Shown here: piece by piece, positions 8,082 through 42,157 of the stretch | How positions within the stretch are numbered: position 1 is the first letter of the stretch | How the letters are laid out: every line of letters starts with the position of its first letter | Source of the DNA: a virus | Strand: one strand, 5' to 3' | IMG/VR virus record: IMGVR_UViG_3300001199_000019 | Location: 1-42,157 of that record | Length of the DNA stretch: 42,157 nucleotides | Position numbers and translations under genes: made by a program | Notes under the pieces: model-generated | What the model saw: the letters and a program-made list of their open reading frames with translations, nothing else | Databases searched by the model: none | Told to the model about the DNA's origin: nothing

Positions 8082-8689
8082 GCAAGGCGTATCCCCGTGC
8101 TGGAGAGTCCGGGACGCCCGCCGAAGCGGGCGGAATTGCTGTGCGCCTGACAATCCGCCAGCGTGCGCTTGCAGGTGGCGAGCGCGCCGGTGTAGTTGCA
8201 CTCCCGGCCCTTGTAGGTCCAGTTGCAGTGATTGGCGATGGCGCGATACAGCGGGTACCGGCGCCGCAGCGGGTTCGGCGCACCCAGGGTGAACGTGACC
8301 CACTGGCTGTCCGATTGGCACGCCAGCACATCGAACGTCATCTCAAGCTCGGCGTAACTCTCCGCGAGCAGCGCGGAATTGACGACGATGATCTTGACCG
8401 TGAACCCGACGCCGCCGTTGTATTGCTCGATATACGCCTGCAACAGCCGCGTAACGTTGGATACGCGCAGTTGAACCTGCGGGATCTCTCCCTGGCCGCT
8501 CGACTTGGTAGAGTCAATATCGAACGGAAACGCCAAGTAGTTATTGGCCTGAAACGGGACGTCCACGTTGTTCCGCGCCAGGCGAATGACCGTCGCGTTC
8601 GGCAGCGTGATCTCGACCAGCACCAGCCACGCGCTGGTCGTGGCGAGCTTGTTCTTTTCGAGAATGAGATTTGCCGGCAGCGTCTTCAT
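8078..8689 (-). CDS. minor tail protein L-like
   Basis: 203 aa. C-terminal Cys cluster CNWTYKGRECNYTG..C..C and FGGRPG. Located between M and K. Confidence 0.8.
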   Translation of the reverse strand: MKTLPANLILEKNKLATTSAWLVLVEITLPNATVIRLARNNVDVPFQANNYLAFPFDIDSTKSSGQGEIPQVQLRVSNVTRLLQAYIEQYNGGVGFTVKIIVVNSALLAESYAELEMTFDVLACQSDSQWVTFTLGAPNPLRRRYPLYRAIANHCNWTYKGRECNYTGALATCKRTLADCQAHSNSARFGGRPGLSSTGIRLA

Positions 8690-8833: not shown

Positions 8834-9180
8834 ACCTCGCGCAGCATGAACGACGCCGAATAGACGCCGACCGTGACGTAGGCGAACTTCACCGGTCCGG
8901 TGAAGCGCACGGTGTAGACCGTCGCGGTCTTGGGATGCGTCCAGGTAAAGCTGTCGGCCCCGCCCTTCACGGTGTCCTTCTCGAAAGTGGCGAGCGAATC
9001 CTTGTCGGTCTGGCCCAGCGCCTCGTAGCGCACGCCCCAGTTGCGCCGGGTGCGCGTGAACTTCTGGCGCGTCAGCTCGTAGCCGCCCTCGAAGGGCGAG
9101 CGCAGCGTGGCATCTTCCAGTTCGCCATCCGGGTCGAGCGGCCAGCTCGGGTTGATCGTCAGCGTCGGGAAAGCAGCCAT
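8830..9180 (-). CDS. minor tail protein M-like
   Basis: 116 aa, directly after the tape measure gene. Its size and position match lambda gpM. Confidence 0.7.
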   Translation of the reverse strand: MAAFPTLTINPSWPLDPDGELEDATLRSPFEGGYELTRQKFTRTRRNWGVRYEALGQTDKDSLATFEKDTVKGGADSFTWTHPKTATVYTVRFTGPVKFAYVTVGVYSASFMLREV

Positions 9181-31433: not shown

Positions 31434-31778
31434 ATGGAACTAAAGCAACGCATTAAAACAGCGAGAAAAGCAGCGCGGCTAACGCAAGAACAGCTCGCCA
31501 AGCGCGTGGGTGTTTCTCGGCCCGCCGTCGTGCAATGGGAGAGCGGCCATACCAAGGCGCTCGATGGTGCCAATCTCGTCCGCGCGGCTATAGCGACCGA
31601 TGTCGAGCCGCTGTGGCTTGCTACGGAGGAAGGACCAATGCACGCATACATGGTGCGGGACGAACCCTATACCGTGCCGCGCGATCTTGTTCAGGCATGG
31701 CAGTGCATGGACAAGAAATCACGCGACCACCTCCTTGCCATCGCAACCACACTGGCCGAGAAAAATAAAAGAGCTTAA
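31434..31778 (+). CDS. cI-like XRE-family repressor
   Basis: 114 aa. IKTARKAARLTQEQLAKRVGVSRPAVVQWESG is a classic XRE HTH. There is no Shine-Dalgarno sequence before the ATG. It is divergent from the cro-like gene. Confidence 0.75.
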   Translation: MELKQRIKTARKAARLTQEQLAKRVGVSRPAVVQWESGHTKALDGANLVRAAIATDVEPLWLATEEGPMHAYMVRDEPYTVPRDLVQAWQCMDKKSRDHLLAIATTLAEKNKRA

Positions 31779-32655: not shown

Positions 32656-32681
32656 TTACCAGCTTCTCGCCCTACTGCTAA

Positions 32682-32708
32682 AGCCCCGCTCTGCGGGGCT
32701 TTTTGCTT
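32682..32708 (+). terminator. rho-independent terminator of the repressor operon
   Basis: An 8-bp stem AGCCCCGC/GCGGGGCT and a 3-nt loop, followed by TTTT. Confidence 0.8.
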
Positions 32709-32731: not shown

Positions 32732-32760
32732 TTGACACGCTATCGTAAGTGTGCTTACAC
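32732..32760 (+). promoter_or_regulatory. early-operon promoter candidate (PL-like) with embedded operator copy 3
   Basis: TTGACA, 7 nt, then GTAAG-tgtg-CTTAC (operator at 32745..32758). The spacing matches the cro-side promoter. Confidence 0.55.
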
Positions 32761-32771
32761 TGCCCACCGTC

Positions 32772-32901: not shown

Positions 32902-33309
32902 ATGCCAACTGCCGAAGCCGCCCAGCAAGCCACCGACCTCGAGTACCCGCTCACCATCGCGTTCCCACAGATCAACCCGGGCGAGAAATTCGCCGGCGTC
33001 ATCGTGAGCGCCGACGGCAAGTACCGCCACGCCTTGATTCTGCTGCCCGGCGAAGCCGAGCCGAACAACTGGCAGGCGCAGATGGAGTGGGCGGCGAGCA
33101 TCGGCGGCGAACTGCCAGACCGCGTCGAAGTCGCGCTCTTGTTCGCCACGCTACGCGATGAGTTCAAGCCGGAATGGTACTGGACCAACGAGCAGCTCGC
33201 CGCGGGCAGCGACTGTGCCTGGCTGCAGATTTTCGGCTACGGCACCCAGAGCTACGGCCCCAAGTCGGACTACGCCCGCGCACGTGCTGTCCGCAGATCG
33301 CCCATTTAG
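32902..33309 (+). CDS. DGR target protein 2 (DUF1566 / C-type-lectin-fold-like, VR at the C-terminus)
   Basis: 135 aa. AAGGAG RBS. The C-terminus WYWTNEQLAAGSDCAWLQIFGYGTQSYGPKSDYARARAVRR is homologous to the TR. Confidence 0.8.
   Translation: MPTAEAAQQATDLEYPLTIAFPQINPGEKFAGVIVSADGKYRHALILLPGEAEPNNWQAQMEWAASIGGELPDRVEVALLFATLRDEFKPEWYWTNEQLAAGSDCAWLQIFGYGTQSYGPKSDYARARAVRRSPI
33192..33299 (+). repeat. variable region VR2
   Basis: It aligns without gaps to TR 37962..38069. In a hand alignment, the differences fall on TR adenines except at TR T38044. Confidence 0.8.
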
Positions 33310-33331
33310 TCATTCAGCAATTTAACAATTT
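33306..33331 (+). promoter_or_regulatory. conserved AT-rich element downstream of VR2
   Basis: TTAGTCATTCAGCAATTTAACAATTT matches 22 of 26 positions of the element after VR1. It is absent after the TR. Confidence 0.5.
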
Positions 33332-33651: not shown

Positions 33652-33846
33652 ATGAGCCAGAACCGCGACTACGCCACACGCGACCACGCCATCCGCTACG
33701 CGTTGCACGAACACGCTGAAGCAACGCTGGCCCTACGCGCAGCCGGTTGCCCACATACCGAGGCTTCACAAGTGGCATACCGCGCCGTTCAAGGCGACAA
33801 GGGACAAATCCGAAAAGGCCGTGCCTTACTGAGGAAACCAACATGA
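33652..33846 (+). CDS. hypothetical protein
   Basis: 64 aa ORF. ATGA overlap with the ParB-like start. Confidence 0.4.
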   Translation: MSQNRDYATRDHAIRYALHEHAEATLALRAAGCPHTEASQVAYRAVQGDKGQIRKGRALLRKPT

Positions 33847-35393
33847 CCACCACCCTGCAGCAGATCCCGATCACGCAGCTGCACGAGTCGCCGCTGAACC
33901 CACGGCGCACCTTCGACGAAAAGACACTCAAGGAACTCGCCGCCAACATCGCTCAGGTCGGCGTGCTCACGCCGCTGCTGGTGCGCCCGAACGCCAAGGG
34001 CTACGAGATTGCCGCCGGCCACCGCCGCTTCCGCGCCGCCAAGCTCGCGAAGCTCGCCGAGGTGCCGTGCGTCGTGCGGGATCTCGACGACAAGACGTTC
34101 CTCGAGATCATGACCATCGAGAACCTCCAGCGCGAGGACGTCCACCCGATCGACGAGGCCCTGGGCTACCAGGTGCTGATCGACAAGACCGGCATGGAGG
34201 TCGCCGCGATCGCGGCCAAGGTCGGCAAGTCCGAGTCCTACGTCTACCAGCGCCTGAAACTCGCCGCGCTCATCAAGCCGGCGCAGAAGGCCTTCCTCGA
34301 CAACAAGGTCACCGCCGGCCACGCCATCCTGATCGCGCGACTGCAGCCCAAGGACCAGGAGGAAGCGCTCAAGTTTTCTACGCGCGGATTTAACAGCAGC
34401 GTGCGGAATCTGGCGGACTGGATCGACGACAACATCCACATGGACCTGCACGCGGCGCCATTCAAGAAGGATGACGCGCAGCTGGTGCCCAAGGCCGGCC
34501 CCTGCACGACCTGCCCCAAGCGCACCGGGTTCACCCCCGCCCTCTTCCCCGACATCGCCAAAAAGGACACCTGCACCGACCGCGTATGCTTCCAGGCGAA
34601 GCGCGCGGCGTTCGTCGCGGGCAGGAAGGCCGAGCTCGCGGAGCAAGGCGAAAAACCGGTCGAGCTGTCCGAGGAATACTACCGCGCCGCAAAAGGCGCG
34701 CTCGCCAAAGACCACTGGATCGAGGTCGGCAACCGGTTCAACAAGGTCTGCGAACACACCCGCGCCGGCATCATCGTGGAAGGCGACGACCTCGGGCGCG
34801 TGCTCAAGGTCTGCATCGAACCGAAATGCCGCGTCCACCGCGGCGCGCAGGAACGCGAGGGCCGATACATGGCGCAGACGGGCCGCAACTTCGCCCAAGA
34901 GCGCCGGCACCAGGCCAAGCAACAGGCGCGCGACCAGGCCATCGGCGTCATCGTCGAAAAAACCAAAGCGCTCGCCACCGACGACCTGCGCCTGCTCGCC
35001 AAGGCCTGCATGCACAACCTCTGGCACGACCACCTCAAGGGCCTCGTCAAGCGCCGTGGCTGGGACGTGAAAAAGGATAAATACGGCGGCTGGAATTACG
35101 CGGAACTTGCCGAGCAGAAGATCGACGGCATGAGCGCCGCCGAGGTCGCCGGCCTCCTCATGGAATACACCATGCTCGGTCGCGGCAGCGACGAGATGCT
35201 GCCGAAGGTCGCCAAGCAGCACGGCGTGAACCTCGCGAAGCTCGAAAAGACCGCGCTGGCCGCACTCACGGCCAAGGCCCGGGAGAAAGCCGCGAAGCAA
35301 AAGGCGGCCGCGAAAGCCAGCGCCAAGGCGAAAGTGCAGACGTCTGCAAAACCGAAAACGCCGGCGGCAAAGAAAAAGAAGGCACGCGCGTGA
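33843..35393 (+). CDS. ParB/Srx N-terminal-domain protein
   Basis: 516 aa. IPITQLHESPLNPRR...YEIAAGHRRFRAAK is the ParB-box signature. The C-terminal tail is Lys/Ala-rich. Confidence 0.8.
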   Translation: MTTTLQQIPITQLHESPLNPRRTFDEKTLKELAANIAQVGVLTPLLVRPNAKGYEIAAGHRRFRAAKLAKLAEVPCVVRDLDDKTFLEIMTIENLQREDVHPIDEALGYQVLIDKTGMEVAAIAAKVGKSESYVYQRLKLAALIKPAQKAFLDNKVTAGHAILIARLQPKDQEEALKFSTRGFNSSVRNLADWIDDNIHMDLHAAPFKKDDAQLVPKAGPCTTCPKRTGFTPALFPDIAKKDTCTDRVCFQAKRAAFVAGRKAELAEQGEKPVELSEEYYRAAKGALAKDHWIEVGNRFNKVCEHTRAGIIVEGDDLGRVLKVCIEPKCRVHRGAQEREGRYMAQTGRNFAQERRHQAKQQARDQAIGVIVEKTKALATDDLRLLAKACMHNLWHDHLKGLVKRRGWDVKKDKYGGWNYAELAEQKIDGMSAAEVAGLLMEYTMLGRGSDEMLPKVAKQHGVNLAKLEKTALAALTAKAREKAAKQKAAAKASAKAKVQTSAKPKTPAAKKKKARA

Positions 35394-36607: not shown

Positions 36608-36828
36608 TGGTCGTGTACTTCCACAACCGTCACACCGAACCGCTGCAGGGGCTCATCCGGCGCTTACAGGCCGAGCCGGACCTGACGTCGGCCGAGACCG
36701 ATGCGCTGACCGATCTCACGCGCAACATCGAGCACGAAACAACCTGCGCGCCCTATCGCCTGTGGCAGCGCGACCAGATTAAAACGGAGAAACACGATCC
36801 ACAACCCGCAATCTCGGAGGCACCATGA
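36607..36828 (+). CDS. hypothetical protein
   Basis: 73 aa. TGATG overlap upstream and ATGA overlap downstream. Confidence 0.4.
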   Translation: MVVYFHNRHTEPLQGLIRRLQAEPDLTSAETDALTDLTRNIEHETTCAPYRLWQRDQIKTEKHDPQPAISEAP

Positions 36829-37439
36829 AGACCAGCACTAAAACCCCCACCATCCCCGGCACCGCCTTCGGCGGCGGGTTCTATGTCGGCCGCATCCGCG
36901 TCGACGACGCCGAATACGCTCTTATCGTTGCGCCGAAGGCCGAGGGCCAGCACGCCGACGGACCGTGGAACGAGTCGTCCGCCAGCGTGAAAGGCGCACG
37001 GAGCTACTGCGACGGACTCGCCAACACGAAGGCCATGGCCAAGGCGGGCAGCAAGCTCGCGCAGTGGGTGCTGGGGCTGCGCAGCGGCGGACACAAGAAC
37101 TGGTATCTGCCGAGCCAGGACGAGCTGGAGCTTTGCTATCGCCATCTCAAGCCCGGCACCGGGGGAAACTCGCTCTATGGCCGCTCGGGGCTGAACATCA
37201 GCGCGGTGCCGCCGACCTACCCCTACTGCACCGATGCCGCGAAGCAAACCAAGGCCAAAGCATTCCGCGAAGGCGGCGCACAGGCGTTCGATCAGGCCTG
37301 GTACTGGAGCTCAACGCAGCTCGCCGCGGACAGCGCCTATGCCTGGATGCAGCATTTCGGCTACGGCTACCAGTACGACGACCACAAGTCGTACGGCGGC
37401 TCGCGCGCACGTGCTGTCCGCAGATTAGTTATTCAGTAA
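36825..37439 (+). CDS. DGR target protein 1 (DUF1566 / C-type-lectin-fold-like, VR at the C-terminus)
   Basis: 204 aa. The NWYLPSQDELELCY block is typical of DUF1566. The C-terminus WYWSSTQLAADSAYAWMQHFGYGYQYDDHKSYGGSRARAVRR is homologous to the TR. Confidence 0.85.
   Translation: MKTSTKTPTIPGTAFGGGFYVGRIRVDDAEYALIVAPKAEGQHADGPWNESSASVKGARSYCDGLANTKAMAKAGSKLAQWVLGLRSGGHKNWYLPSQDELELCYRHLKPGTGGNSLYGRSGLNISAVPPTYPYCTDAAKQTKAKAFREGGAQAFDQAWYWSSTQLAADSAYAWMQHFGYGYQYDDHKSYGGSRARAVRRLVIQ
37312..37425 (+). repeat. variable region VR1
   Basis: It aligns to TR 37958..38068. In a hand alignment, about 12 differences fall on TR adenines, with one T-to-G difference and one 3-nt insertion near the 3' end. 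Confidence 0.85.
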
Positions 37440-37450
37440 TTTAATTATTT
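37425..37450 (+). promoter_or_regulatory. conserved AT-rich element downstream of VR1
   Basis: TTAGTTATTCAGTAATTTAATTATTT matches 22 of 26 positions of the element after VR2. Confidence 0.5.
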
Positions 37451-37461
37451 GGTTTTTCAGC

Positions 37462-37818
37462 ATGGCCTTTCATACCGATTTGCAGATTTACAAGGTCGCC
37501 TACGACCTGCTGGGCGTGGCCGGCGATTACGTGCGCAACATGCCGCGCCCGATCAAGGCTGCGCTCGGCAACCGGGTGACCGAGCTGTGCGTTGAGATCG
37601 TGCTGTTGATTGCCAAGGCAAACAGCGTCCGGGACAAGGTGCCGCCTCTCGAAACCTTGCTCGAACGCAACGAGGAACTGAACCTGCTACTCCGGCTCTG
37701 CAAGGACAAGCGGTTTATTTCCCTCAAGCAGTACGCCGCGGCCATTGGTCTCACCGCCAGCGTCGGCAAACAGGCCAACGGATGGAAAAAACACAATGCA
37801 GCGTCGCCCGTTGCCTGA
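37462..37818 (+). CDS. avd: accessory variability determinant (Avd, four-helix-bundle protein)
   Basis: 118 aa. The helical pattern with a basic C-terminus (GKQANGWKKH) is typical of Avd / 23S rRNA IVS-type four-helix-bundle proteins. It lies between the target and the TR. Confidence 0.8.
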   Translation: MAFHTDLQIYKVAYDLLGVAGDYVRNMPRPIKAALGNRVTELCVEIVLLIAKANSVRDKVPPLETLLERNEELNLLLRLCKDKRFISLKQYAAAIGLTASVGKQANGWKKHNAASPVA

Positions 37819-37942
37819 CCGTCACGGCGGTCTGGCCTGTGCGACTTTTGATCTGGTCGCGCCGCTGGCCCACGAGGCCACCGCTATGCACGCGCGAGAC
37901 CACTCCGGTGCAGTTCCCCCGCTGAACATTCGGCGGGGCGAC

Positions 37943-39190
37943 ATGGAATGCGCGAACCAACGCAGCACGCCGCGAACAGCGACTATGCCTGGATGCAGAA
38001 TTTCGGCAACGGCAACCAGAACAACGACCACAAGTCGAACAACTACCGCGCACGTGCTGTCCGCAGATCACTGCCATCCGGGCCATGCTGACTTTTCTTT
38101 CGAGGAGTTGGTGGTCGCGTATTTCGACTGCCGGCGCACCAAGCGCAACAAACCCTCGGCGCTCGCCTTTGAGCAGGACCTGGAGCGCAACCTGGTACGG
38201 CTCCACGACGAGCTGCAGGCCGGCACCTACCGCCCGGGCGCCTCCGTCTGCTTCGTCATCACGCGGCCCAAGCCGCGCGAGGTATGGGCGGCGGACTTCC
38301 GCGATCGCATCGTCCATCACCTGCTCTACAACCGCATCGCGCCCCGGTTCTACGCCACGTTCATTGCCGACTCCTGTGCCTGCATCCCGGGCCGCGGTAC
38401 GCTCTACGCCGCCCAGCGTCTCGATGCCAAGGTGCGCTCGATCACGCAGAACTGGTCCCGGCCGGCGTGGTACCTCAAGTGCGACCTCGCCAACTTCTTC
38501 GTCTCAATCGACAAGCGCATCCTGCGGGATCTGCTGGCCAAGCGTATCACCGAACCATGGTGGCTGTGGCTGGCCGAGACCATCCTGTTCCATGACCCGC
38601 GCCCGGACGCGGTGCTGCACAGCCCGGCGGAACGCCTGGCGCTGATCCCGCCGTACAAGAGCCTGTTCAACCAAGACGCCGACCACGGCCTGCCGATCGG
38701 CAACCTGTCGTCGCAATTCTTCGCCAACGTCTACCTGGACAGCCTCGACCAACACGTCAAGCACAAGCTGCGCGCGCGGCACTACATCCGCTACGTCGAC
38801 GACTTCGTGCTGCTGCACGAATCGCCGCAGTGGCTCAATGCCGCGCTGGCCGACATCGAGGCCTTCCTGCCAGAGGTCCTGGGTGTCCGGCTGAACCCGA
38901 CCAAGACCATCCTGCAGCCGGTTGTGCGCGGCATCGACTTCGTCGGCCAGGTCATCAAGCCCTGGCGCCGGACCTTGCGTCGACGCACGTTCAACGAGGC
39001 CCTGCACCGCGTGAGTGGTATGGACGCCGGCGACCTGTTCGAGTCGGCCAACAGCTACTTCGGCCTGCTGCGCCAAGCCACGCACAGCCACGCCGACCGC
39101 GTGCGGCTGGCGAGGATCGTTCGCCGACGCGGATTCGCGGTGAACGGGACGCTGACCAAGACTTACCGCGGGAGAAATCAAAGAGCATGA
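37943..39190 (+). CDS. DGR reverse transcriptase
   Basis: LPIGNLSSQFFANVYL (the DGR-type IGxxxSQ motif), the IRYVDDFVLL catalytic box, and FRDRIVHHLLY. The start is uncertain: in-frame ATG at 37943 or 37985, or GTG at 38054. The conserved N-terminus begins near 38090. Confidence 0.85.
   Translation: MECANQRSTPRTATMPGCRISATATRTTTTSRTTTAHVLSADHCHPGHADFSFEELVVAYFDCRRTKRNKPSALAFEQDLERNLVRLHDELQAGTYRPGASVCFVITRPKPREVWAADFRDRIVHHLLYNRIAPRFYATFIADSCACIPGRGTLYAAQRLDAKVRSITQNWSRPAWYLKCDLANFFVSIDKRILRDLLAKRITEPWWLWLAETILFHDPRPDAVLHSPAERLALIPPYKSLFNQDADHGLPIGNLSSQFFANVYLDSLDQHVKHKLRARHYIRYVDDFVLLHESPQWLNAALADIEAFLPEVLGVRLNPTKTILQPVVRGIDFVGQVIKPWRRTLRRRTFNEALHRVSGMDAGDLFESANSYFGLLRQATHSHADRVRLARIVRRRGFAVNGTLTKTYRGRNQRA
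37958..38069 (+). repeat. template repeat (TR)
   Basis: In the VR reading frame it reads NSDYAWMQNFGNGNQNNDHKSNNYRARAVRR, with seven AAC codons. The 3' 22 nt are identical in TR, VR1 and VR2. Confidence 0.85.
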
Positions 39191-40534: not shown

Positions 40535-42157
40535 ATCCACGGACGACAACGACAAAAACGAGGACAGCAAGTCGGTCACGCGCCAGGTGGCGCATGCCCG
40601 CGACTACATCGCCGGCAAGGGCTGGACCCTCGACGACGCCCACGTCTACGTGGACGACGATGTCAGCGGCGCCGAGTTCAAAAACCGCCCCGGCCTGCTG
40701 CGACTGCTCAACCACCTGAAAGAGTTTGACACGGTCGTGATGTCCGAGTTCTCCCGGCTCGGGCGCGAACAAAGCAACACCGCGATCGTGCTGGCGCAGA
40801 TACACGCCGCCGGCGTGCGGGTGTTCTTCTACCTCACCGACGAGGAGCTGCGCTACGAATCGGCGATCGAGAAATTCATGGTTTCGGCCGCCGCCTTCGC
40901 GGCCGAGCTGGAGCGCGAAAAAGCATCGCAGCGGGCGCGGGATGCGGCGCTCAAGCGTGCGCGGGAGGGGAAAAACTTTGGCGGGCGGGCGTACGGCTAT
41001 GACAACGTGCCGGTTTACGGCGCAGCCGTGAACGGCCAGGAAGTGCGCACGCATACCGACTACCGCATCAACCCGGATGAAGCCGAGGTCGTGCGCGGGA
41101 TCTTCCGCGCCTGCGCCGGCGGGCGCGGGCTAACGGCCATCGCCAAGGCGCTGAACGGCGACCCGGGATGCCGCGACATCGCCGAGCGATACTTCGATGG
41201 CAAACAACCGCCACCGCCGCGCAAGGGCACGGGCTCCTGGGCGCCGTCGAGCGTCCGTGAAATCCTCCACCGGCCGCGCTACACCGGCAAGATACCGTTC
41301 GGCGAACACCGCAAGGTCCTGCGCGCCGGCTCGACCGCGCGCGTGCGCCAGGCTAACTACTTGCTCACGGAGCGCCCGGACCTGCGCATCGTCCCCGACG
41401 ACCTATGGATAGCCGTGCAGACGCGCCTGAAAGCGCTGCACGCGCAATACAGCCACCTGAACACGGGCCGGGTCGAGTCAAAATACCTCCTGAGCGGCCT
41501 GATGCGTTGCGAACACTGCGGCGGGCCGATGGTCGGAACGACCGTGTCCGTCGGATCGTACGGGAAGCGCCGACGTGTACCGCGTTATTCCTGCAGCTAC
41601 GCCAACACCCGCGGCGTGACCGTCTGCACAAACAACTGCAAACCGGGCATCGAGGTCCTCGACGGGCAGGTGCTGGACGCGATCGAGCAAATGGCCCTGT
41701 CCCCAGCCGCAGTGCAGCGAGTGCTAGACCTTGTGGTCGAACGCGCCAGAGCCGAGCGCCAGCAAAGCCCAACGCGTCGGCGAGACATGGAAGCGGAGCG
41801 GCGGAAACTACAACAGGAGATCGACCGGCTGGTCGCGCTGGTGGTCGGCGGGAGAGCGCCGGCGAGAATACTCGAGGAAATCACGCGGCGGGAAGTGCGA
41901 CTGAAGGAGATGGAGCGTCAGCCGGCGGTTACCGGCAAAATCGACCCGCGACGCATCGAGGCCATGGCGTTCGAGCGCATCGCGGACTTCAAGGGCCTGC
42001 TGCGCAGCAGGCCCTCCGAGGGCCGCCATGCGCTTCGGCAACTTCTTGCCGGCCACATCGCCTTCCGGGTGCTGGAAGGCGGCCGTTACAGCTTCCACGG
42101 CGCGACCCATATCGGGATACTGCTACAGTCAACACCCTTGAACGGGGCGTCCCCAGC
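40506..42157 (+). CDS. large serine recombinase (integrase), 3' end runs off the window and continues at nt 80..143
   Basis: AILARKSTDD catalytic-Ser block, SEFSRLGRE, a recombinase domain, a zinc-ribbon block (CEHCGG...YSCSY...C) and a coiled-coil C-terminus. There is no stop before 42157. Confidence 0.9.
   Translation, partial: MPRAAILARKSTDDNDKNEDSKSVTRQVAHARDYIAGKGWTLDDAHVYVDDDVSGAEFKNRPGLLRLLNHLKEFDTVVMSEFSRLGREQSNTAIVLAQIHAAGVRVFFYLTDEELRYESAIEKFMVSAAAFAAELEREKASQRARDAALKRAREGKNFGGRAYGYDNVPVYGAAVNGQEVRTHTDYRINPDEAEVVRGIFRACAGGRGLTAIAKALNGDPGCRDIAERYFDGKQPPPPRKGTGSWAPSSVREILHRPRYTGKIPFGEHRKVLRAGSTARVRQANYLLTERPDLRIVPDDLWIAVQTRLKALHAQYSHLNTGRVESKYLLSGLMRCEHCGGPMVGTTVSVGSYGKRRRVPRYSCSYANTRGVTVCTNNCKPGIEVLDGQVLDAIEQMALSPAAVQRVLDLVVERARAERQQSPTRRRDMEAERRKLQQEIDRLVALVVGGRAPARILEEITRREVRLKEMERQPAVTGKIDPRRIEAMAFERIADFKGLLRSRPSEGRHALRQLLAGHIAFRVLEGGRYSFHGATHIGILLQSTPLNGASP
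42079..42157. repeat. terminal overlap, copy 2 (identical to 1..79)
   Basis: Base-by-base identity read directly. Confidence 0.95.

Follow-up and report, generated by a model that had tools for sequence, protein, structure and literature searches.

Can the single diversity-generating retroelement (DGR) of a phage rewrite a second gene that does not adjoin it? The question is raised by the virus record IMGVR_UViG_3300001199_000019, of which we analyzed the whole stretch of 42,157 nt (hereafter, the window). A reading made from the letters and open reading frames (ORFs) alone, here called the sequence-only reading, had proposed that the gene at 32902–33309 (target gene 2) is a remote DGR target with its own variable region (VR2), written from the same template repeat (TR) as the variable region (VR1) of target gene 1 beside the DGR cassette. 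We find it very probable that this gene is a genuine second, non-adjacent target of the phage's only DGR: VR2 shows adenine-specific mismatches to the sole TR, the predicted product has a lectin fold, the cassette is intact, and the arrangement is conserved in relatives.

The strongest evidence is the pattern of substitutions. As claimed from a hand alignment, VR2 aligns to TR positions 37962–38069 without gaps over 108 nt. The computed alignment contains 16 mismatches, 15 at TR adenines and one at a TR thymine (T38044, opposite G at 33274 in VR2); the earlier tally of about 15 differences, all but one at A, had the pattern right and the count one short. Tabulated by TR base, the mismatches are thus not spread over the four bases. 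For a stretch composed of 32 A, 36 C, 27 G, and 13 T, the hypergeometric probability that at least 15 of 16 mismatches fall on A by chance is 8.6e-9, and across the 76 non-A positions VR2 carries no further mismatch beyond T38044/G. The mutated adenines became G (6), T (5), or C (4), solely at the first two codon positions of the VR2 frame, and all 14 changed codons are nonsynonymous (e.g., AAC to GGC, TAC, ACC, AGC, and GAC, the last four as listed in the sequence-only reading).

This spectrum bears directly on the simplest alternative, that TR and VR2 resemble each other through ordinary paralogy or gene conversion of lectin-fold genes followed by normal divergence, without reverse transcription. 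The two target proteins do have in common a C-terminal WYW...RARAVRR framework, as such a history would predict, but normal divergence would scatter mismatches over four bases, synonymous sites included, whereas 15 of the 16 lie at A and all changed codons are nonsynonymous. Moreover, read in the VR frame, the TR copy does not code for protein, and it sits between the accessory gene avd and a DGR-type reverse transcriptase (RT) gene. Because of the substitution spectrum, we regard ordinary paralogy as effectively refuted.

No adenine-rich copy other than the TR that would have written VR2 is present in the window. When both strands of the whole window were scanned with the TR, scored at its non-A positions, only VR2 and, with a gap, VR1 were returned, and neither a third VR nor a second TR was found. 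The TR starts 4770 nt downstream of the start of VR2, and a distance of 3.5 kb separates the end of the target-2 ORF from the beginning of target gene 1; the earlier placement 'about 4 kb upstream' of the cassette was thus correct as to remoteness and approximate as to distance. VR2 itself ends 10 nt before the end of its ORF, stop codon included. Bases 1–79 of the window are repeated exactly at 42079–42157, which indicates a circularly closed genome of ~42,078 bp and hence that all parts of the DGR are in view; we therefore take the window to be the complete, circularly assembled genome of a lambdoid temperate phage. No tRNA genes were found in it.

Might VR2 instead be served by another DGR, such as a chromosomal one of the host? 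Action of DGRs in trans is known (Wu et al., 2018, PMC5758913), and the one non-A mismatch to the local TR would be compatible with a foreign template. Against this, the local TR accounts for VR2 save one base, the complete genome holds one TR, and scans of genome and metagenome collections for the TR pattern (with A as N) found no other copy; a phage gene that needed a host TR would, in addition, not be co-inherited with its template, an argument made in the same study. We consider service by another DGR very improbable and attribute VR2 to the TR of the window.

Table 1. Features of the second DGR target, the DGR cassette, and their surroundings (positions in the window).
Feature	Position	Strand	Evidence and remarks
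Target gene 2, 135-aa single-domain Lcl_C/DUF1566 C-type-lectin fold protein	32902..33309	+	ORF; AlphaFold model
VR2, variable region templated by TR	33192..33299	+	gapless 108-nt alignment to 37962-38069
GC-rich 3' block identical to TR (IMH-like part 1), 22-23 nt	33277..33299	+	its 3 adenines unmutated
AT-rich VR-flanking motif TTAGTCATTCAGCAATTTAACAATTT (IMH-like part 2), after VR2	33306..33331	+	7 nt further from AGAT than at VR1
TR (template repeat)	37958..38069	+	37962-38069 common to VR2; VR1 match begins at 37958
Target gene 1, 204-aa Lcl_C-domain protein adjoining avd	36825..37439	+	Pfam Lcl_C 40.9 bits, above cut-off; phrog_4245
VR1	37312..37425	+	3-nt in-frame insertion relative to TR within 37395-37403
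AT-rich VR-flanking motif TTAGTTATTCAGTAATTTAATTATTT, after VR1	37425..37450	+	begins at final T of AGAT
avd accessory gene, 118 aa	37462..37818	+	Pfam bAvd 52.9 bits, above cut-off of 40
RT-15 structured RNA, between avd and TR	37802..37962	+	Rfam RF03018, 131.4 bits against a gathering score of 82, full-length match
DGR reverse transcriptase, conserved coding part of ORF 37745-39190	38090..39190	+	RVT_1 58.7 bits; start codon uncertain
Terminator-like hairpin	32680..32702	+	10-bp stem and T-run; closes the HTH-repressor/zinc-ribbon unit upstream of target 2; consensus scan only
Promoter-like site	32732..32761	+	TTGACA-18-TACACT, 10 of 12 matches; consensus scan only

The cassette needed to write VR2, with avd, the RT-15 RNA, the TR, and the gene for the RT in succession on one strand (Table 1), is intact. 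The RT translation carries the motifs IGNLSSQ and YVDD, in line with the [I/L]GxxxSQ and YxDD of the DGR clade. Its best sequence match in the PDB is 8ub7_A (E = 6.5e-39; named 'Reverse transcriptase' in the output), which we take to be the RT (bRT) of Bordetella phage BPP-1 and to which the RT of the window is homologous; the match begins at ~38099, where residue 4 of the query (38090–39187) aligns to residue 15 of the chain. The RT reading frame is open through the whole TR, +1 relative to the VR frame, back to 37745. Upstream of ~38053–38090, however, the frame reads through AAC repeats and yields a Thr-rich translation of low complexity, so that the true start of the RT is uncertain; with the 8ub7_A match beginning where it does, we set this upstream part of ORF 37745–39190 aside as probably non-coding.

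The same cassette would also have written VR1, in the gene next to it. A gapless alignment of VR1 to the TR is impossible and requires a 3-nt in-frame insertion; the alignment then shows 12 A-to-N mismatches, one non-A mismatch, and the 3-nt indel beside the AAC AAC repeat of the TR. Two placements are equally parsimonious. In one, VR1 (possibly at 37398) has G opposite T38044, as does VR2, which would suggest that the TR underwent a point mutation since homing last took place; the other gives VR1 an additional AAC-derived codon and a C-to-G change. Whether G in both VRs reflects a post-homing mutation of the TR depends on the placement chosen, related TRs having TAC or AAC at this codon. Nor do we accept as a firm conclusion that the insertion marks a dead VR1, since 3-nt indels next to AAC repeats are known from 7% of DGRs and are ascribed to RT slippage (Wu et al., 2018, PMC5758913).

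VR1 and VR2 differ from each other at 16 of 82 gaplessly comparable positions. Adenines mutated in both number six, three of them changed to the same base, an overlap no greater than chance (P = 0.5). Together these figures fit the view, already taken in the sequence-only reading, that the two VRs were written by independent homing events. An orthologue of target gene 1 with 89% nucleotide identity, complete with VR and AT-rich flanking motif, was observed in IMGVR_UViG_3300003312_000140 (L008, 2641–3283), and its VR is without the 3-nt insertion. Similarity to the window ends there ~8 codons into avd, and the remaining 1.6 kb contains no TR-like copy; L008 may represent an orphaned target or a deleted cassette. 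As a separate observation, the discrepancy between T38044 in the TR and G 33274 in VR2, which may stem from a point mutation that the TR acquired once homing had last occurred, extends to L008, whose VR1 orthologue also has G.

The product of target gene 2 is of the kind that DGRs diversify. The DUF1566-like ORF of 135 aa that had been called is present (GC content at third codon positions 0.85), with an AAGGAG ribosome-binding site read off the sequence. Its Pfam match to Lcl_C (DUF1566), over residues 88–131, reaches 20.7 bits and so falls below the gathering score of 34.9; the fold was assigned from an AlphaFold model built on 108 homologues, with a mean predicted local distance difference test score (pLDDT) of 90.8 and a predicted template-modeling score (pTM) of 0.82. 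The best PDB match of this model is the C-terminal domain of Legionella Lcl (8q4e; template-modeling score, TM, 0.63–0.65), followed by many C-type-lectin domains, and its matches in a viral structure library are DUF1566 proteins of uncultured phages. The predicted structure confirms the Lcl_C/DUF1566 C-type-lectin fold. No hydrophobic leader, signal peptide, or lipobox is visible at the N-terminus as read from the sequence.

The two target proteins are alike only over the TR-templated C-terminal ~50 residues (54% identity), and their scaffolds have no significant similarity. They are best described as members of the same fold class, not as close paralogues. The proposal that one RT/TR pair diversifies two paralogous proteins accordingly holds for the number of targets, and the term 'paralogous' applies only to the fold and to the C-terminal stretch.

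Variation among the homologues of target 2, of which 620 were found, is distributed in the same way as the mismatches. In the 108-homologue alignment, the 22 VR codons whose first or second position is an adenine in the TR average 2.20 bits of entropy, as compared with 0.73 bits for the other 14 VR codons (P = 4.6e-4) and 1.10 bits for the scaffold (P = 2.8e-5). Moreover, in a 90%-identity cluster of target-2 orthologues (P0082 and 10 members), residues 1–118 are essentially invariant and ~13 VR positions differ in every member, a pattern that we read as the mark left in a population when an orthologue is actively diversified. Another cluster of orthologues, P0042, is nearly invariant, so activity is not universal in the family, in which active and quiescent DGR targets appear to coexist.

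Beyond the template and the protein, both VRs carry sequences resembling the signal for initiation of mutagenic homing (IMH). Of the 22-mer CGCGCACGTGCTGTCCGCAGAT the window has exactly three copies (33277, 37404, and 38047), one each at the ends of VR2, VR1, and the TR, in agreement with the earlier statement that the three have their final 22 nt in common. Behind this GC-rich block, both VRs are followed by an AT-rich motif (Table 1): the 26-mer TTAGTNATTCAGNAATTTAANNATTT has two matches in the window and none in 100 shuffles. With a consensus of about TTARTTATTCAGTAATTTAATTATTT, the motif stands behind the VRs of nearly all related cassettes examined (L001–L025) and never behind a TR, and the TR flanks of these cassettes diverge right after AGATC. 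In 2.9 million IMG/VR contigs there are 11 occurrences of the exact 20-mer ATTCAGTAATTTAATTATTT, all of them 6–16 nt past a VR end of the form ...GTCCGCAGAT. Because the motif is found at two spacings, 0 or ~7 nt after AGAT, in different reading-frame contexts, it appears to be conserved at the DNA level independently of reading frame. In some DGRs IMH and its TR counterpart IMH* are identical, and recognition must then extend downstream (Wu et al., 2018, PMC5758913). The AT-rich motif is a candidate for the VR-specific part of the IMH, acting as a recipient signal. Its restriction to this clade would make it a sequence handle for remote VRs that could escape TR-based tools.

By analogy with Bordetella phage BPP-1, the region from avd through RT-15 and the TR to the RT gene would be transcribed, and a complex of RT and Avd would copy the TR RNA to cDNA, misincorporating opposite adenines. 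The cDNA would then replace the homologous stretch wherever the recipient signal sits, here CGCGCACGTGCTGTCCGCAGAT followed by the AT-rich motif of the clade. With that signal present at two sites, at VR1 by avd and at VR2 4.8 kb upstream, one template could independently recode ~14 surface codons of two different proteins.

The arrangement recurs in related phages. In Magia, a phage of Burkholderia cenocepacia (NC_070954; L001), the RT region has 74% nucleotide identity to the window. The GenBank record annotates gp44 as RT, gp45 as Avd, and both gp47 and gp57 as 'lectin fold domain protein, possible DGR target', together with IMH-like regions, and the genome announcement, which describes a myophage, also names gp47 and gp57 as possible DGR targets (Microbiol Resour Announc 2021, PMC7883833). 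Of these two, gp47 is adjacent to the cassette; gp57, the remote one, is found 6 kb upstream, close to the immunity repressor, and its whole length aligns to target 2 with 46% identity. As in the window, RT-15 lies directly 5' of the TR, the VRs end in GTCCGCAGAT with a related flanking motif behind them, and the annotated RT coding sequence takes in the TR. Unlike the window, Magia has three VRs, the third in gp46; the genes between remote target and cassette encode an exonuclease, RecT, and an ATPase, rather than a ParB-like protein and unknown ORFs; and Magia is a myophage, whereas the window has tail genes of the siphophage lambda-J type. The avd-adjoining target of the window, of the 204-aa type, resembles gp46 in the VR part only. 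In Magia itself, gp46 (L001 7876–8340) is annotated as a hypothetical protein and contains a VR (8231–8320) that matches the Magia TR (8875–8964), which gives this phage three DGR targets, as against two in its annotation and paper.

The IMG/VR relatives likewise have two or three VRs per TR, and one VR in L004 lies 3.7 kb upstream. Gene order is conserved in a Logan contig (L012), where a repressor gene, small genes, a target-2 orthologue, a ParB gene, further genes, and an Lcl_C protein gene follow each other as in the window; no convincing TR copy was found downstream of the Lcl_C gene within the contig, and for this reason we used L012 for synteny only. The closest cassette found, L015 (RT 82% identical without gaps), has a 194-aa protein of the target-1 type and a 153-aa protein of the target-2 type in tandem before avd (1340–2432). 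In the window, by comparison with L015, the 135-aa type sits apart by 3.5 kb on the upstream side, and it is the 204-aa type whose 3' flank (the LVIQ* ending, the motif, and the avd start) is that of the second tandem gene of L015. This difference hints at a rearrangement by recombination between VRs.

Several observations weigh against target gene 2 being a genuine target. VR2 has its one non-A mismatch, G opposite T38044 of the TR, and if this is a TR mutation, no rewriting of VR2 has taken place after it. In the VR2 copy of the AT-rich motif, 3 of 20 positions depart from the clade consensus, and the copy as a whole is shifted by 7 nt. Neither DNA folding nor inverted-repeat searches revealed a GC-rich hairpin after VR1 or VR2, nothing scoring better than shuffled controls; a stable hairpin was not found after the Magia VRs either, and such a hairpin downstream of the VR is present in 34% of DGRs and absent in 66% (Wu et al., 2018, PMC5758913). 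Additionally, near-identical genomes were not found, exact-protein look-ups of Avd and target 2 returned no record, and the TR pattern (A as N) had no match in the genome and metagenome contig collections. Among viral contigs, the pattern matched L008 only, with its VR1-type orthologue, and the related-locus search confirmed no target-2 relatives in genome contigs.

Some of these points could mean that VR2 is an inactive relic, once written from this TR lineage and no longer competent for, or reached by, homing. The T38044/G mismatch would fit such a history, as would the three substitutions and the 7-nt displacement that set the flanking motif of VR2 apart from that of VR1 and from the clade consensus, and near-invariance is seen in some orthologue clusters such as P0042. 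The lack of any further non-A mismatch in 76 positions, on the other hand, leaves little time for drift of VR2; the displaced form of the motif is conserved at many VRs of related cassettes (those of Magia, L002, L015, L021, L022, and L024); the cassette is intact; and the indel belongs to VR1, the adjacent 'canonical' target. On balance we think it unlikely that VR2 is a relic, and continue to favor a genuine second target, one that is plausibly still rewritten today.

A target of this kind has precedents. Wu et al. (2018, NAR 46:11, PMC5758913) found non-adjacent targets in 45 of 372 DGRs and put multi-target DGRs at about 15%; many of their cases are prophages with one adjacent and one non-adjacent target within a single prophage, and Treponema denticola is included. 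They recognized non-adjacent targets by differences from the TR that are only A-to-N with minor exceptions, by their not being part of another DGR, and by intervening genes, and VR2 has all three, with T38044 to G as the one exception. The element of the window, which is not in that 2017 data set, differs from those catalogued in nothing categorical. The combination of one adjacent and one non-adjacent phage DGR target is thus already documented, and the window adds one more example; since the class is catalogued and the orthologous remote target of Magia is annotated and published, the finding, while correct, is ordinary. What the window contributes is a complete 42-kb phage in which one template would serve two structurally related, otherwise dissimilar small lectin-fold proteins of the early region, and this raises the question of roles for DGR targets outside the tail.

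Comparison with the best-known systems sharpens that question. The window resembles BPP-1 in its bAvd-family gene, in the order target, avd, TR, RT, in adenine-specific mutagenesis, and in a VR at the 3' end of an ORF for a C-type-lectin fold. BPP-1, however, has a single target, the receptor-binding protein of the tail fiber, as opposed to two small leaderless early-region proteins in the window; it also has, like Legionella, a GC hairpin after the VR, which the VRs of the window lack, and the structured RNA of the window, RT-15 5' of the TR, is a further difference. The DGR of Legionella pneumophila (DUF1566, 'CLec2') is brought to mind by the best structural match of target 2, the Lcl C-terminal domain 8q4e, and VRs of the DUF1566 type form category 'd' of Wu et al. 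(2018, PMC5758913). The Legionella target LdtA is a surface lipoprotein according to the same study, whereas target 2 has no visible signal peptide or lipobox.

The surroundings of the two targets are those of an early region. The minus strand of the window encodes the large terminase, portal, major head protein, tape measure, a J-like tail protein, primase, and a CII-like regulator, and with its lambda-J-type tail genes the genome is evidently of the siphophage type. Both targets and the cassette are on the opposite strand to the structural genes. On the plus strand, an HTH_3 repressor-like gene (31434–31778), zinc-ribbon ORFs, and the terminator-like hairpin and promoter-like site of Table 1 come first; a 39–46-aa ORF, target 2, a 100-aa ORF, and a 548-aa ParB-like protein come next, followed by three functionally unassigned ORFs, target 1, avd, RT-15, the TR, and the gene for the RT. 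The promoter-like site could start an operon that runs from target 2 through the parB-like gene, target 1, avd, and the TR to the RT gene, and, judged by layout, both targets and the cassette may form one early transcription unit.

Small leaderless single-domain lectin-fold targets lie at the head of, and within, a putative early operon by the immunity region in the window, in Magia, and in L009 and L012. It is conceivable, if rather speculative, that the diversified proteins of this clade are not receptor-binding proteins of the virion but hypervariable binders inside the infected cell or lysogen, directed for instance against host defense or competing phages. Intracellular binding would then set these proteins functionally apart, as a class of phage DGR target, from those used in tail-fiber tropism switching, and the cis signals of the lineage would be the RT-15 RNA on the donor side and the AT-rich post-VR motif on the recipient side.

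These side points (the role of the leaderless early-region targets, the AT-rich motif after the VR, and the fixed position of RT-15) may be worth more follow-up than the second target itself. RF03018 is listed in Rfam as a small RNA (sRNA) with function unassigned, and for the RT motifs other than RT-10 membership in DGRs was only speculated (Weinberg et al., 2017). In all 11 cassettes examined, the window and 10 of 10 related ones, the 3' end of RT-15 abuts the first base of the TR (L001 8694–8876, L002 2795–2977, L005 11201–11392, L006 11046–11249, L015 2797–2966, L016 1696–1887, L021 2070–2251, L022 1284–1453 on the minus strand, L024 11098–11281, and L025 441–610). An orphan Rfam family thereby obtains a fixed place, directly 5' of the TR.

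A last observation concerns the gene that separates the two targets. The 548-aa protein encoded at 33747–35393 (+) has ParB_N and HTH_ParB domains, and a ParB-like gene also follows the target-2 orthologue in L012.

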